From Candidatus Enterousia sp. (GTDB taxonomy: Bacteria > Pseudomonadota > Alphaproteobacteria > Rs-D84), in the NCBI GenBank assembly GCA_045614145.1, contig JAZLCH010000011.1, forward strand, positions 4,198 to 68,197: a DNA stretch of 64,000 nucleotides, read 5' to 3'. Position numbers and translations under genes: made by a program. The notes under the pieces were generated by a model, which was not told the DNA's origin, made no database searches, and saw only the letters and a program-made list of their open reading frames with translations. This document shows, piece after piece, positions 3,799-36,175 of this stretch; positions within the stretch are counted from its first letter, which is position 1, and the number at the start of each line of letters is the position of its first letter.

Positions 3799-5862
3799 AT
3801 GTACACACCAGCACCAATGAGAACATCAGTCTTAGACTTTATTCAGAAAAGCATGGGATGCCAGTTTGTTATTCCTGTATATCAGCGTAATTATACATGG
3901 AAGGCAAAGGAAGAAGTTGAAGTATTTTTAGATGACACAGAACGCCTTTTGTATAAAGAAAGTTCAGCGCATTTTTTTGGTATTGTAATATACCTAGGCC
4001 TGCCACGAGCATTTAATCATCATGAGTATCAAGTTGTGGATGGGCAACAGCGCTTAACAACGGTCTTTTTGACATTGTATGCACTAAAGCATATTGCTCA
4101 GCAAGATATCTATGATTCTACATTCCCCGATAAATTAGATGATATGTATTTGATAAATAAATACATAGAAGATGCTTCTATGAAATTAAAATTGAAGCCG
4201 CTGGTATCAGACGACAATGTATATGTAAAAATTGTTGAAGGAAATCTAAAAAACATAAGTCCAGAAGAACAAAATACAAATGTGTATAAAAATTATGTTG
4301 CGATTAAGAATAGAATAGGTAAATGGTTGTCAGATGATTATAGCCTAGAAGCTATTTTAGATGCGTTACAGAAATTATACATAGTTACAATTCCATTGTT
4401 AAATACAGATGATCCACAGCAAATATTTGAAAGTATCAATTCAAAGGGGGCTCCTTTAACTGCTGCGGATCTTATACGTAATTATTTGTTGATGGGCGAG
4501 GAAGATGTTGAACAAGAACGTTTGTATGAAAAATATTGGAAACCGTTAGAAGCAAAGGTTGAAGATTCTAAAGAACTGGAAGAGTTTTTCAGATTATTTT
4601 TAGCAAATCAAACATTCGATTTGCCAAAAAAGAAAGAAGTGTATAGTGCGTTTAAATTATGGTGCGATGATGAGGAAACAAGCAAACAGGAGATTTTTGA
4701 AAAGATAAATCAATATATGGGATATTTTTGGGCACTGTATCGGGAAGAAGATGCAATAAAAAATCTGCCAGCATTACGTTTCTTTAGACGTAATCCGTCT
4801 GTCTTGCCCGCACCATTCTTAATGGAGATGTATAAACTATGCGATGAACAGAAAATATCGCCAAGAACATTGGATGTAATTATTGATCTTGTAGATATTT
4901 ATTTGACCAGACGTGCACTTGCCGCAAGAGACACAAGTGAAATTACAAGATTTTTCCCAAGTTTCTTAAGGCATGTTATTTTGGCAACGGGCGACAAATA
5001 TGAAAATATCGTAGATAATGTAAAGTATTTCTTAATAAATGAAACAAGATTTACGGCAATGAAAATGCCAACAGATCAGGATTTAAGAGACTTTTTATCA
5101 CATAACGATGCTTATATTTTAAAATGTACCCGTTCTGTTCTGGATAAGCTTGAATTGGTTGATAATTCTGCCCAGGTTGATTTATCAAATTTAAGTGTAG
5201 AGCATTTGTTGCCACAGACTGCGACGGATTATTGGAAGAAATATGTTCCAGAGGATGAGTATGATCAGTATGTCGGTTTGATTGGCAATTTAACCTTGGC
5301 AACCAGTCTTAATAATAGCCAAATGGGCAATGACGAATGGGACAAAAAGAAACAAATACTAGAACAAACAAGACATATTAAATTAAATGAAGAACTGTTG
5401 TCTTATAATGAATGGACAAAAGCAGACATAGAAAACCGAACTCAACAAATGATTGATAGGATTATAAAACATTATCCATATCAAGAGTCTTCTTTGTCTG
5501 AGAATCCTTTGCCGCCAGAAGTTCAGCAACAATATGCTCAGGCACAAAGGGATGCACGTAAAGCTAGAAAGTTGTCACGGGTATCTCGCAGTCGATTTAA
5601 TTTTGACATGTTAGATATTCCTAATGGGGCAACTTTGGTTTTTATAAAGGATGAGTCTGAAACTTGTACAGTAATATCTGAAAATACCGTTTCATACAAG
5701 GGGGCAGAGTATCGTTTAAGTCCATTAGCAAAAGAGTTGCTGCATAAGCGTGGCATCAATTGGAATACCGTACAGGGGCCAGCTATGTTTAAATATAATG
5801 GCGAAGTTTTGTCAGAAAGGCGAGACAGAATAGAGAGAGATGAATTAGCTTGGTGGGAATGA
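3799..5862 (+). CDS. DUF262 (ParB-like, DGQQR motif) / DUF1524 (His-Me finger) protein, GmrSD-like type IV restriction family, with extra C-terminal domain
   Basis: VVDGQQRLTT motif near N-terminus; SVEHLLPQT His-Me finger motif; about 130 aa extra C-terminal region. Confidence 0.75.
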   Translation: MYTPAPMRTSVLDFIQKSMGCQFVIPVYQRNYTWKAKEEVEVFLDDTERLLYKESSAHFFGIVIYLGLPRAFNHHEYQVVDGQQRLTTVFLTLYALKHIAQQDIYDSTFPDKLDDMYLINKYIEDASMKLKLKPLVSDDNVYVKIVEGNLKNISPEEQNTNVYKNYVAIKNRIGKWLSDDYSLEAILDALQKLYIVTIPLLNTDDPQQIFESINSKGAPLTAADLIRNYLLMGEEDVEQERLYEKYWKPLEAKVEDSKELEEFFRLFLANQTFDLPKKKEVYSAFKLWCDDEETSKQEIFEKINQYMGYFWALYREEDAIKNLPALRFFRRNPSVLPAPFLMEMYKLCDEQKISPRTLDVIIDLVDIYLTRRALAARDTSEITRFFPSFLRHVILATGDKYENIVDNVKYFLINETRFTAMKMPTDQDLRDFLSHNDAYILKCTRSVLDKLELVDNSAQVDLSNLSVEHLLPQTATDYWKKYVPEDEYDQYVGLIGNLTLATSLNNSQMGNDEWDKKKQILEQTRHIKLNEELLSYNEWTKADIENRTQQMIDRIIKHYPYQESSLSENPLPPEVQQQYAQAQRDARKARKLSRVSRSRFNFDMLDIPNGATLVFIKDESETCTVISENTVSYKGAEYRLSPLAKELLHKRGINWNTVQGPAMFKYNGEVLSERRDRIERDELAWWE

Positions 5863-6045
5863 TGTTTTATATAAAACGGCCAAATAAGGCCGTTTTTTAT
5901 AAAGCTAATAATCAGGAGGCAAAAGTCTATTGTGTTTTCCTGTATATATCCGGATAAACTGTTCTAAAAGTCGCAATTTCCGCCTTAATAGAAATTTTAT
6001 GTAAAACTGCAGAAAATTTCTATTATGATAGAAATTTGTTCCTTT

Positions 6046-32481: not shown

Positions 32482-32571
32482 GGATGGTTGGCAGAGCGGT
32501 CGAATGCGGCGGTCTTGAAAACCGTTGTGGGGGCAACTCCACCGGGGGTTCGAATCCCTCACCATCCGCCA
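32482..32571 (+). tRNA. tRNA-Ser (anticodon TGA)
   Basis: 90 nt, long variable arm, anticodon loop CTTGAAA, CCA end. Confidence 0.9.
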
Positions 32572-32578
32572 GTAATAA

Positions 32579-32607
32579 AAAAATCACCCCAACGGGGTGT
32601 TTTTTTA
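32579..32607 (+). terminator. intrinsic terminator after tRNA-Ser
   Basis: caccccaacggggtg hairpin plus T7. Confidence 0.7.
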
Positions 32608-32739
32608 TTGCTACCAGTATGGCATCGGGTTCAATTCAACAACGTCAGTTGTTCTGGGTTCGACAATGAGTAGATTTGATAAGCTCTGCGCAATCAAATC
32701 GTTAGGAATGCCCCGCAGGCATGAAATGCCGAGGGAATA

Positions 32740-32783
32740 CTCACCATCCGCCAGTAATAAAAAATCACCCCAACGGGGTGTTT
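32740..32783 (+). repeat. direct repeat of tRNA-Ser 3' end plus terminator hairpin (first copy 32558-32603)
   Basis: about 44/45 identity ctcaccatccgccagtaataaaaaatcaccccaacggggtgttt. Confidence 0.7.
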
Positions 32784-32786
32784 AAT

Positions 32787-33488
32787 TTATTCACGCCATA
32801 TAACGGATTTAAACATGCTGTTTATTTTGGCTTTTAATTCCATGTCTGTAAAAAACTGATTTCGCATCGCGTCTGTGGTTTTGTGGGTATCCGTTTCAAA
32901 ATGCGGTATATATTTTTGTATTGCGACATTTTGCACACCGCGCACTGACAAAATATCCATAATTTCCATCAGATTATCTTTGTCGATAAACAGTGGGTCG
33001 CATGTTATGCGAACCTCAAAGTCCTTGTTATGGGTGATTAAAATATCCAAACTGCGTATCATGTTGTTGTACGCAATATCCTGGCCGGTCAGGTCTGGGT
33101 ATTTTTCGCGCGTTGCTTTGAAATCCAACCCGACCCAGTCAATTATATCAATCGCCTGTTCCAAAGTGTTCGGATAAAATCCATTTGTGTGCAGTCCAAT
33201 TTTAAATCCCAGATTGCGCACACGTTGCATATACTCGATTGTGGCACCTCCTTGCATTAACGCTTCGCCACCTGAAAATACAATTGCCTCTAACCGGCCT
33301 GTGCGTGATTGAATCCAATCCATAACGCGTTCTGGGTCATATTCACCGTCGCCCGGGCATAATAAATGGGGGTTAGAACAATACGCACACTTCAACGGAC
33401 AGCCCACCAGAAACAAAACCGCGGCCAGTTTCCCTGGGTAATCAATTGTAGTGAATGATACTAACCCCCCAATCTGAATATCGCGCAT
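32787..33488 (-). CDS. nrdG: anaerobic ribonucleotide reductase activating protein (radical SAM)
   Basis: GCPLKCAYCSNP CxxxCxxC; adjacent to nrdD. Confidence 0.8.
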   Translation of the reverse strand: MRDIQIGGLVSFTTIDYPGKLAAVLFLVGCPLKCAYCSNPHLLCPGDGEYDPERVMDWIQSRTGRLEAIVFSGGEALMQGGATIEYMQRVRNLGFKIGLHTNGFYPNTLEQAIDIIDWVGLDFKATREKYPDLTGQDIAYNNMIRSLDILITHNKDFEVRITCDPLFIDKDNLMEIMDILSVRGVQNVAIQKYIPHFETDTHKTTDAMRNQFFTDMELKAKINSMFKSVIWRE

Positions 33489-33493
33489 AATGA

Positions 33494-33676
33494 TTACGCC
33501 GCACGTTTTAACAAATCATAATGACGCTGACCTGCGCTTAAGCTGTTTTCTTCTGTAAAGGTTTTACGTTCACAGAATTCAGAATACTTACCAATATTAA
33601 AATTTCTTACTGGGCGAATAAATCCCATAGAACGTGAAAAAATTTCGCATGGTGTTCTGGTTGCTGTATTGGTCAT
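33494..33676 (-). CDS. small protein resembling the glycyl-radical C-terminal tail of NrdD
   Basis: SRSMGFIRPVRNFNIGKYSEFCER resembles class III RNR glycyl radical region (R..G[YF]...P...N.GK..E..R); own RBS gggaggag. Confidence 0.5.
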   Translation of the reverse strand: MTNTATRTPCEIFSRSMGFIRPVRNFNIGKYSEFCERKTFTEENSLSAGQRHYDLLKRAA

Positions 33677-33715
33677 AATTTTCTCCTCCCTTTTTTTATG
33701 ATTTGTTTTATGACA

Positions 33716-35758
33716 TTAATTGTTTTGTTCTATTTTGTCCTGGTTTGCAGCGTTTTCTGCATCGCACTTTGGACAGAATTCATGTTTTCCCGGCAGATAA
33801 CCGTGCTTTGGGCAGATTGAAAATGTTGGTGCCAGTGTCATATATGGCACCTTGTAGTTTTCAAAAATCGTGCGCACAATTTTCTGAGCGGCGTCCCCAC
33901 TGGAAACAGGTTCACCCATATACAGATGCAACATTGTGCCGCCTGTATATTTGCGCTGTAATTCTTCTTGGTGTTCCAGTGCGACAAACGGATCGTCTGT
34001 AAAGTTCACTGGCAACTGGGTTGAATTTGTATAGTATGGCGCGTCTTTGGTTCCTGCTGTGATAATATCTGGGAAATTCTTAACATCCGTTTTTGCAAAG
34101 CGGTATGAACATCCCTCGGCCGGTGTTGCCTCCAGATTATACAGGTTGCCCGTCTGTTCTTGGAATGTTGCCAGATTTTCACGGATAAAGTCCATGACAT
34201 CCAGTACCAGCTTTTTCCCCATTGGTGTTGCAATATTTTCGCGGTCACCTGTAAAGTTGCGAACCATTTCATTTGCGCCATTTACACCGATTGTTGAAAA
34301 GTGATGATTCCAATCTCCCAGATAGCGTTTTGTAAATGGATACAACCCGCGTTCCATATTCTTGGAAATAATATCACGCTTGATTTCCAGTGCATCACGA
34401 CCCAAATCCAACAGGCGTTTCAGTTCTGTAAATAATCCTTCACGGTTTCCACGATGTATATAACCCAAACGTGCCAGGTTGATTGTGATAACGCCAATTG
34501 AACCTGTCTTTTCTGCAGAACCAAACAGTCCACCACCGCGCTTTAACAATTCGCGCACATCCAAACGCAGTCGACAGCACATTGAACGAACATCCGTCGG
34601 GTTCAAGTCAGAATTCAAGAAGTTCTGGAAATTTGGAATCCCATACTTTGCCGCCAAATCAAACAAAGGTCCCACATTTGGGTGTTCCCATGGGAAATCC
34701 GGTGTAATATTGTATGTTGGAATTGGGAAAGTAAATGGACGACCCAGCGCATCACCTTCGGTCATAACCTCCAGAAACGCTTTATTAATCATATCCATTT
34801 CTGCCTGCAGTTCTCCGTATGTAAAGTCTGTCTGTTTGCGACCTATAAACGGACGCTGTGACCTTAAATCTTCTGGGCATGTCCAGTCGAATGTAAAGTT
34901 AATAAATGGCGTCTGTGTTCCCCAACGGCATGGTACCGCGCAGTTAAAGATAAGTGTCTGCATTGCATTTTTCACATCTGCATATGACAAATTATCGATG
35001 CGAACATATGGGGCCAGATATGTGTCCACAGATGAAAACGCCTGTGCGCCTGCAAATTCATTCTGCAATGTACCCAAGAAGTTTACCATATGTGAAATCG
35101 CTGTTGCCATGTGGCGTGCCGGTTCGCACTGCAAATACCCATCAACCCCGTTAAAACCTTCGTATAACAATTCACGCAGTGACCATCCCGCACAATATCC
35201 CGTCAACCAGCCCAAATCATGAACATGAATTGCGGCGGTCTTATGTGCCTCAGCAACCGCCCGCGGATACAGGTTCAACCAATATTCCGCGGTTACGCGT
35301 TCGCTGGTACGCAATATCAGCCCACCGATGGAATAGCCGACATTTGCATTTTCTTTGATGCGCCAGTTTGACCCACCGACATACCCTTCGATAATATCAA
35401 CCGCATCAACCATAGATTCGCGGATTTCCGTGCGTTTTTGGCGATATATGATATAGGCTTCGGCTGTTTTATATGCGCGCGCATCCATCAATGTCTGAAT
35501 AACAACATCCTGTATTGCTTCAACAGTTGGTGTTTTTTCTGCAAACTTTTCATCCAGTCGCTTTAACACATCTTGTGTTATCTTAACAACTTCTACATCT
35601 GAAATTTCCGTAGTAACTGCGACCGCCTTTTTAATTGCTTCATATATTTTTTTTGAATCAAATGGTACGGTTTCACCGCTGCGCTTTTGAACTGCCACCA
35701 GGCGCGTTGTCAGCGTTGGTGTAATTTGAATTTGTACTTCATTTTGTGTTTCTGACAT
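33716..35758 (-). CDS. nrdD: anaerobic ribonucleoside-triphosphate reductase body (ATP-cone plus catalytic barrel plus Zn ribbon), lacking glycyl radical tail
   Basis: N-terminal ATP-cone (VQKRSGETVPFDSKKIYEAIKKA); C-terminal CPKHG...CPKCD; start chosen at MSETQ with GGAG RBS. Confidence 0.8.
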   Translation of the reverse strand: MSETQNEVQIQITPTLTTRLVAVQKRSGETVPFDSKKIYEAIKKAVAVTTEISDVEVVKITQDVLKRLDEKFAEKTPTVEAIQDVVIQTLMDARAYKTAEAYIIYRQKRTEIRESMVDAVDIIEGYVGGSNWRIKENANVGYSIGGLILRTSERVTAEYWLNLYPRAVAEAHKTAAIHVHDLGWLTGYCAGWSLRELLYEGFNGVDGYLQCEPARHMATAISHMVNFLGTLQNEFAGAQAFSSVDTYLAPYVRIDNLSYADVKNAMQTLIFNCAVPCRWGTQTPFINFTFDWTCPEDLRSQRPFIGRKQTDFTYGELQAEMDMINKAFLEVMTEGDALGRPFTFPIPTYNITPDFPWEHPNVGPLFDLAAKYGIPNFQNFLNSDLNPTDVRSMCCRLRLDVRELLKRGGGLFGSAEKTGSIGVITINLARLGYIHRGNREGLFTELKRLLDLGRDALEIKRDIISKNMERGLYPFTKRYLGDWNHHFSTIGVNGANEMVRNFTGDRENIATPMGKKLVLDVMDFIRENLATFQEQTGNLYNLEATPAEGCSYRFAKTDVKNFPDIITAGTKDAPYYTNSTQLPVNFTDDPFVALEHQEELQRKYTGGTMLHLYMGEPVSSGDAAQKIVRTIFENYKVPYMTLAPTFSICPKHGYLPGKHEFCPKCDAENAANQDKIEQNN

Positions 35759-35782: not shown

Positions 35783-35832
35783 ACACAACATATAGTGGTT
35801 GTCTGTTTGTTTCGATAACAATATATAGTGAA
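35783..35832. promoter_or_regulatory. two putative NrdR boxes upstream of nrdD
   Basis: acacaacatatagtgg and aacaatatatagtgaa, 33 bp apart, 25-75 bp upstream of nrdD start. Confidence 0.4.
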
Positions 35833-36175
35833 TCGCTTTTGTAAGCAATCTATAAAAAAGAAAAAAAAATTATTTTTCGCTTTACTTTTAAAAAGGCTAG
35901 TATTCCGCATGCCTCAGACCAAAACAGAATCGGAAAATATGTACGAACGTTTCTTTTGTGTATGAAAAAAAGTTTTTTTATGTGGGAAATGATTCGTTTT
36001 TTGTGTTTTTTTACAAAATATTGATTAAAAAATGCGAATCAGTGTCTATATATTGTATTTTTAGGAATCGAACTGATTGTTATTTATAGGTTGTAATTCC
36101 TGTCAAAAATGACTATATTCAATATATCGCAGCTGTGGTGGTTGCGTCTATGTTTAACGAAATTAAGGCATAATT

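Follow-up and report, generated by a model that had tools for sequence, protein, structure and literature searches.

Can a class III (anaerobic) ribonucleotide reductase (RNR) be encoded with the glycine that bears its radical on a gene of its own? This question is raised by a locus of Candidatus Enterousia sp. found in the window that we analyzed, a stretch of 64,000 nucleotides of contig JAZLCH010000011.1. There, the reductase gene nrdD stops before its glycyl-radical loop, a 60-aa open reading frame (ORF) with such a loop follows, and the activase gene nrdG comes next. Observed in this and in related genomes were the structure of the genes and the organization of the operon, together with homology, conservation and selection. 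Our analysis indicates that the locus very probably codes for a functional class III RNR made of two polypeptides, in which the 60-aa protein is best read as a required radical-bearing subunit, a detached glycyl-radical loop that would not be a spare.

Two gene products and one glycine loop

The product of the large gene (alpha) matched the Pfam family NRDD (PF13597) with E=9.5e-167 and 556.5 bits (cut-off 26.2), the NCBIfam model NF006126 with 1016.6 bits (cut-off 548) and TIGR02487 with 458.1 bits (cut-off 326.35). It also contains an ATP-cone (PF03477, E=3e-21), and it matched the solved NrdD structures 8p23, 4coi and 1h78. Both ORFs share out the family models between them. Residues 136-669 of alpha match positions 1-531 of the 562 of PF13597 and the small ORF matches 531-562, while over the 684 positions of NF006126 the corresponding stretches are 4-653 and 649-683. 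No glycyl-radical motif was found in the large ORF, whose chain ends at position 653 of 684 of the latter model. The small ORF carries the class III loop SRSMG18F...NIGK...E..R, so the radical glycine (RVxGY loop), absent from the chain that forms the barrel, is present in the two-gene system. The product of the third gene scored 182.8 bits against the NrdG2 model TIGR02495 (cut-off 131.15).

The initial annotation of this DNA, made from the sequence and its ORFs, had described an NrdD that ends just after its Zn-ribbon without a glycyl-radical segment, a 39-nt gap with a strong ribosome-binding site and a 60-aa ORF corresponding to the class III glycyl-radical region. All of this agrees with our results. 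The ORF that it assigned to nrdD is also real, but the length of 710 aa has to be corrected. That figure is the maximal ORF counted from a TTG at 35848, and the ATG at 35758, which was the end coordinate given in that annotation itself, leads to a protein of 680 aa. We consider this ATG the real start because homologues align from residue 1 and because two operator-like boxes (see below) lie inside the supposed 30-aa extension.

In order to place the break, an artificial concatenation of both ORFs was aligned with 39 single-chain NrdDs (40 sequences). Invariant in the large part were the finger-loop cysteines C394 and C395, the role of which in NrdD has been described (PMC9669993), together with C649, C662 and C665 of the Zn-ribbon. 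R15, G18, K30 and E33 of the small ORF (R709, G712, K724 and E727 of the fusion) aligned with invariant positions of the glycine loop. Alpha keeps everything but this loop, and the peptide keeps the loop's invariant residues. The break sits in the hinge of 3-5 residues that joins CxxC(G) to the (C/T)EVYSRVVGY strand of the single-chain enzymes. Here the hinge gives way to a polar tail of 14 residues and a stop, then the spacer bearing the ribosome-binding site, and finally the start codon of the small ORF with its 7 N-terminal residues, which amounts to about 35 codon-equivalents.

Homology of the small protein to NrdD was also apparent when it was searched on its own. A Pfam scan at E<=1 returned NRDD only, besides a spurious match to Lipoprotein_10, and no similarity to Gly_radical (PF01228 / IPR011140) appeared in that scan. 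No match was found at E<=10 when the PDB was searched with phmmer; a related small peptide aligned to residues 614-646 of Thermotoga maritima NrdD with its glycine on G621, a weak match (E=1). Homologues of the small ORF made up 317 protein clusters of 57-92 aa with E down to 1e-32, all annotated as 'hypothetical protein' or unannotated, indicating that the resemblance is far beyond chance. Among 58 homologous peptides 26 columns were invariant. The conserved residues include R15, G18, K30, E33 and R37 as well as F40, T41, N44, G49, R51, L55 and A60 in a C-terminal extension of about 15 extra residues, found in the Enterousia peptide and conserved to the same degree as the loop. This extension probably supplies the binding energy that was once given by the lost peptide bond or tether. 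The C-terminal ...KxAA was considered as a protease tag and set aside, given that other lineages end differently and that a fused homologue (P0144) ends in LLLKKAA too.

The split across Enterousia and its interpretation

We have scanned one genome per species and found 80 related loci with an alpha 82-97% identical to that of the window (counts of 81 include the window). They carried the labels Candidatus Enterousia or uncultured Alphaproteobacteria/Rickettsiales, and their source was the gut of ruminants, horses, chickens and humans. The split that the initial annotation had suggested looking for in related genomes appeared in every one of the 81 nrdD loci: an alpha without glycine loop stops after CPKCD and is followed by a spacer, a Shine-Dalgarno (SD) sequence, an ATG, the small ORF and nrdG. 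The SD core is always located no more than 20 nt from the ATG, and the spacers, 24-59 nt long with a median of 40, vary in sequence apart from it. The gene nrdG begins 2-23 nt past the small ORF in 76 loci, and in the other 5 its start had been set at an in-frame Met further upstream. The frame of the small ORF relative to alpha was 0, +1 and +2 in 33, 24 and 24 loci respectively. Over its 53-codon core there was no indel at any locus, and the ratio of nonsynonymous to synonymous change was low, with a pN/pS of 0.18 and a median dN/dS of 0.11; for the last 300 codons of alpha the values were 0.08 and 0.03. The small ORF is under purifying selection.

In the window the two ORFs share a frame with a single TAA between them, which taken alone could resemble a nonsense mutation, and hence a recent pseudogene of a single nrdD or a frameshift of sequencing or assembly. 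We give this explanation practically no credit. The same break is present in all 81 independent metagenome-assembled genomes, obtained in different studies and from different hosts, with spacers of varying length and in all three frames. An SD and an ATG are always there, dN/dS is 0.11 without indels, and what has changed is the replacement of a short hinge by a long insert that includes a ribosome-binding site. The three relative frames exclude a shared frameshift error, as well as read-through and programmed frameshifting. Thus, of the two options that the initial annotation had left side by side, the natural split stands and the frameshift artefact falls.

One could also imagine that a single fused NrdD is still produced, by programmed recoding (stop-codon read-through or ribosomal frameshifting) or by protein ligation, and the common frame in the window and in 33 of the 81 loci would allow for the former. 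We regard this as extremely improbable. In the remaining 48 loci the frames differ, by a shift in one direction or the other, the spacer changes in length and sequence except for the SD, and in other lineages the small gene is found past nrdG, 1-2 kb off, or upstream. As to ligation, neither ORF has an intein match, and the stretch behind CPKCD is just 14 polar residues long and that in front of the conserved RTxCE just 7. Enterousia genomes are smaller than 1 Mb, about 90% coding and belong to strictly fermentative organisms (PMC12306168), so that a dead gene is unlikely to persist in them. The conserved layout, the purifying selection, the compactness of the genomes and the lack of room for a split intein all argue that the split is natural and functional.

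If so, the two proteins would act together, and we infer a complex of both, its activation in trans and a benefit in the repair of oxygen damage. Since alpha has no glycine loop of its own, the peptide would be an obligate subunit rather than a spare. With S-adenosylmethionine, NrdG would remove a hydrogen from the small protein at Gly18. The activated loop would then dock non-covalently in the barrel of alpha, at the position taken by the covalent tail in the NrdD of phage T4 or Thermotoga, and Gly18 would make the thiyl radical on Cys394/395. Oxygen is known to cleave glycyl radical enzymes at the glycine (PMC13450708), and a split design would confine this damage to a cheap peptide of 60 residues, replaceable without remaking the 680-aa subunit, as a kind of built-in spare-part design. 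The docking and the repair advantage are less certain than the functional enzyme of two polypeptides.

Several points weigh against this interpretation. The family-model scores of the small ORF are modest (E=1.7e-4 to 2.2e-3) and under the whole-protein cut-offs, although this is expected for a match that spans only 35 residues. The peptide alone was predicted to fold with low confidence (predicted local distance difference test, pLDDT, 59), which fits a segment that folds upon binding, as does the disordered half of YfiD (PMC8683613). With regard to a second full-length nrdD or another class of RNR, our view is confined to the nrdD loci. The oxygen-repair advantage is speculation by analogy to GrcA, and the case for a reductase of two polypeptides is argued at the level of sequence.

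The low confidence of the predicted fold would also suit a small protein that acts as a regulator or decoy, for example as a mimic of the NrdG substrate, with alpha taking its radical from another source. This seems to us quite improbable. The R, G, K and E that are invariant in catalytic glycine loops stay invariant in the peptide, alpha retains the finger-loop cysteines, and no other cofactor domain was detected in alpha by the Pfam scan. Besides, no class III enzyme is known to function without a glycyl radical (PMC9531940).

Operon layout and relatives of the two genes

The coordinates of the locus are collected in Table 1, together with those related loci that are discussed below. The three genes share orientation, are tightly spaced and have separate initiation, and they are best read as one NrdR-controlled operon in which each gene would have its own ribosome-binding site. 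The NrdR-box-like motif occurs 4 times in the window, where 0.35 matches would be expected; two of them form the pair upstream of nrdD and the remaining two are located within coding sequence. A pair with the identical 33-bp spacing was found again upstream of nrdD in 27 related loci. The likeness of the boxes was judged on what we take to be the NrdR consensus, acaCwAtATaTwGtgt. A simple motif (regular expression) search detected no nrdR gene in the window. At the other end of the operon there is a direct repeat of 52 nt (window 32558-32609 and 32740-32791), 77% identical and 182 bp apart. It consists of the last 14 nt of a tRNA-Ser(tga) plus a terminator hairpin CACCCCAACGGGGTG, and its second copy overlaps the nrdG stop. 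This repeat may have arisen by local duplication, or it may be what is left of an integration event at the tRNA gene.

Table 1. Coordinates and layout of the split nrdD locus in the window and of related loci (strand given where available)
Feature	Location	Strand	Remarks
nrdD-large (alpha)	33716..35758	(-)	680 aa: ATP-cone residues 23-111, NRDD barrel, Zn-ribbon
nrdD-large stop TAA	33718-33716	(-)	protein end ...CPKHGYLPGKHEFCPKCDAENAANQDKIEQNN
Intergenic spacer, 39 nt	33677..33715	(-)	Shine-Dalgarno GGGAGGAG at 33683-33690, 6 nt 5' of small-ORF ATG
Small ORF, 60 aa	33494..33676	(-)	ATG at 33676; sequence MTNTATRTPCEIFSRSMGFIRPVRNFNIGKYSEFCERKTFTEENSLSAGQRHYDLLKRAA; Gly18 codon 33623-33625
nrdG activase, radical SAM (S-adenosylmethionine), 233 aa	32787..33488	(-)	begins 5 nt past small-ORF stop
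Terminator-like hairpin CACCCCGTTGGGGTG, GC-rich, then T-run	32766..32780	(-)	directly past nrdG; operon end
Finger-loop cysteine codons Cys394-Cys395 (RSMCCRL)	34574..34579	(-)	expected radical acceptors; invariant columns
Zn-ribbon ligand codons C649-x2-H652 ... C662-x2-C665 (CPKHG...CPKC)	33764..33814	(-)	C-terminal end of nrdD-large
Two NrdR-box-like operators	35785..35830	(-)	CACTATATGTTGT 35785-35797, CACTATATATTGT 35818-35830; 13 nt each, 33 bp apart, upstream of nrdD ATG
L081/L083	134-kb viral contig		nrdD, DUF7487, nrdG, 61-aa ORF
L084	237-kb viral contig		intein-containing nrdD, nrdG, 56-aa ORF
L085	metagenomic contig		50-aa ORF 2.4 kb upstream
L086/L087	bacterial-looking context		60-aa ORF 1.2 kb downstream
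L088	phage-like		64-aa ORF adjacent
L092	metagenomic contig		nrdD, nrdG, 49-aa ORF
L094	bacterial		nrdR, nrdD, 45-aa ORF, nrdG
Orphan NrdD-type glycine-loop peptides, 50-98 aa	L096:6001-6162, L097:6001-6162, L100-L130 and others		IMG/VR contigs

The split architecture is far more widespread than the window, and stand-alone relatives of the peptide occur in hundreds of clusters at least. An exhaustive search of 50%-identity representatives gave, among the best 150 NrdD matches to alpha, 60 with a glycine loop and 90 without, some of the latter being fragments. The sequence after the CxxC tracks the split state: representatives of the type 'CxxC-[DE]x[EKIN]' lacked the glycine tail in 36 of 37 cases, and those of the type 'CxxC-G' had it in all 38. 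Another 18 representatives, of the 'CP..H' type, were also without loop. A glycine-loop ORF of 45-64 aa was found nearby in seven of the nine glycine-less lineages inspected (Table 1), and not near L093, where the assembly has a gap, or L095, where the flank is short. A further bacterial operon (L098/L099), reached by way of a peptide match and thus outside these nine, repeats the gene order of the window with an alpha 59% identical. When a profile was built from seven non-Enterousia peptides, at least 7,998 proteins among the 8,000 candidates scored matched at E<=1e-3, and the best 120 were all of 49-90 aa. Split and fused forms interleave in a neighbor-joining tree of intein-stripped cores, a tree too crude to count the origins of the split. 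In current annotation pipelines the small gene is called a 'hypothetical protein' or handled as a fragment, and the large one may be marked as truncated.

The two cultured phages inspected, phiCTP1 and an Oceanotoga phage, have an ordinary fused NrdD. In the annotated phage collection tblastn with a phage small peptide found no match, and a large subunit (P0131) matched 8 records only.

Some of these relatives showed peculiarities of their own. At L095 (6863-7042) an NrdD of the 'CP..H' type without a second CxxC is directly followed by a 59-aa ORF with CKFC...CEKC and no glycine loop, which may represent a different break point, inside the Zn-ribbon. The alpha of L088 (4001-5818) ends in a heptad-like charged helix (…EYEKKLSDLQQKKEALLAEVES) and its peptide (5841-6035) begins with one (…RIARVDEQISQVEQKLKD); judged by eye, this hints at a coiled-coil, a zipper-type tether between the halves. 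The closest NrdD representatives (P0121-P0270) are mostly 800-1,900 aa long, with the query matched in 2-5 stretches, and intein and LAGLIDADG matches were found in the inspected cases L084, L085, L086 and L094. This NrdD subfamily appears to be unusually heavily invaded by inteins. Eight fused NrdDs (P0132, P0133, P0140, P0159, P0187, P0197, P0207 and P0216) have an extra C-terminal module resembling thioredoxin or glutaredoxin (…TCPNCK…) past the glycine loop, which suggests a built-in reductant domain.

We have also found the peptide without its partner genes. A very abundant relative of 53 aa (P0380, 840 index blocks), named 'anaerobic ribonucleoside-triphosphate reductase [uncultured Bacteroides sp.]', has Mu-like prophage genes as neighbors (Mu-type transposase, TniB/AAA_22 ATPase, GemA, Mu gp27, portal and Mu F), and no nrdD or nrdG was present within 6 kb of it. 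Among 76 IMG/VR contigs encoding a relative of this peptide, 28 had a fused NrdD, 2 a small ORF with a nearby NrdD-like ORF (one of them, L103, a clear split) and 46 a stand-alone small ORF, with no NrdD-large and no NrdG in flanks of up to 10 kb on both sides.

Such orphans make a trans-acting spare-part role plausible for the peptide family, and may themselves be candidate spare parts for the class III RNR of the host. For the window, the corresponding explanation would be that the peptide rescues an oxygen-cleaved full-length NrdD encoded elsewhere, the large gene being something else. We think this unlikely to a high degree, since the window and the 80 related genomes always place the peptide between a glycine-less alpha and nrdG. 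Moreover, the best NrdD match in each of these 80 genomes, all of a lineage with less than 1 Mb, is the form without glycine tail. An obligate subunit therefore remains the preferred reading for Enterousia. A broader and quite tentative idea would cover both situations: NrdD-type glycine-loop peptides might be a general exchangeable radical cofactor, obligate in split systems, with the phage orphans re-arming or boosting the host reductase in trans during infection or after oxygen damage. If this were true, the orphans would be the first example of spare parts serving a glycyl radical enzyme beyond pyruvate formate-lyase (PFL), and splitting would let the activase act on a pool of free peptide, with radical generation apart from catalysis.

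Comparison with known systems

The closest known systems are the single-chain class III RNRs, the NrdD of phage T4, Escherichia coli, T. maritima and Prevotella copri with their NrdG. The locus of the window shares with them the ATP-cone, the barrel, the finger-loop cysteines, the Zn-ribbon and the sequence of the glycine loop, as well as the adjacent activase and an NrdR-type control. The difference lies in the glycine, which is there part of the C-terminal domain of alpha and here belongs to a separate gene product. According to surveys of 2022 (PMC9531940, PMC9669993), the C-terminal part of alpha is where the described class III enzymes have their glycyl radical domain. In the searchable full-text literature, which leaves most subscription journals outside, we came across no account of a class III RNR in two pieces, nor of a spare part for any RNR.

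Other RNRs are also encoded in pieces. In the split class II enzyme NrdJa/NrdJb a C-terminal functional module is likewise found on a second, adjacent gene (PMC9669993). However, it is an enzyme of another class, and the detached part consists of Zn-finger and IscU-like domains for re-reduction and not of the radical site. The class I NrdA of Aeromonas phage Aeh1 is presumably a case of genes in pieces, split by a homing-endonuclease gene into two ORFs that reassemble. As in the window, an RNR catalytic subunit is there made of two ORFs, and the NrdD relatives described here are heavily invaded by inteins and LAGLIDADG elements. In contrast, the 39-nt spacer of the window contains no endonuclease gene, and the break frees only the last ~40 residues homologous to full-length NrdD. 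Aeh1 thus offers a parallel for the division of an RNR subunit, but none for the release of the radical site. Small proteins bound to the catalytic subunit of a glycyl radical enzyme are found in BSS (beta and gamma), HPAD (gamma) and MASS (beta, gamma and delta), but these are Fe-S or rubredoxin-like and lack a radical glycine (PMC13450708).

The initial annotation had compared the small protein to GrcA/YfiD of E. coli, and with respect to the mode of action the comparison is a good one. GrcA/YfiD and Y06I of phage T4, both cofactors of PFL, are also small stand-alone glycyl-radical-loop proteins that complete a barrel non-covalently, and their activation is presumably carried out by the activase of the parent enzyme. 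The comparison does not extend to homology, GrcA being related to the C-terminus of PFL (Gly_radical, PF01228) and the peptide of the window matching NRDD only. Neither does it extend to the role, given that the PFL supported by GrcA possesses a glycine of its own, whereas alpha has none and its peptide would be obligate. According to reviews (PMC13450708, of June 2026; PMC8683613), formate lyases are the only enzymes for which spare-part glycine proteins are known, and an earlier paper asks explicitly whether they exist for other members of the glycyl radical enzyme family. A peptide of 60 residues can be synthesized, isotope-labelled and mutated, and owing to its small size the activation by NrdG, the docking of the loop, the radical transfer and the oxygen damage could be easier to study than in a single chain. 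The two-piece NrdD answers part of the question of spare parts beyond the formate lyases.

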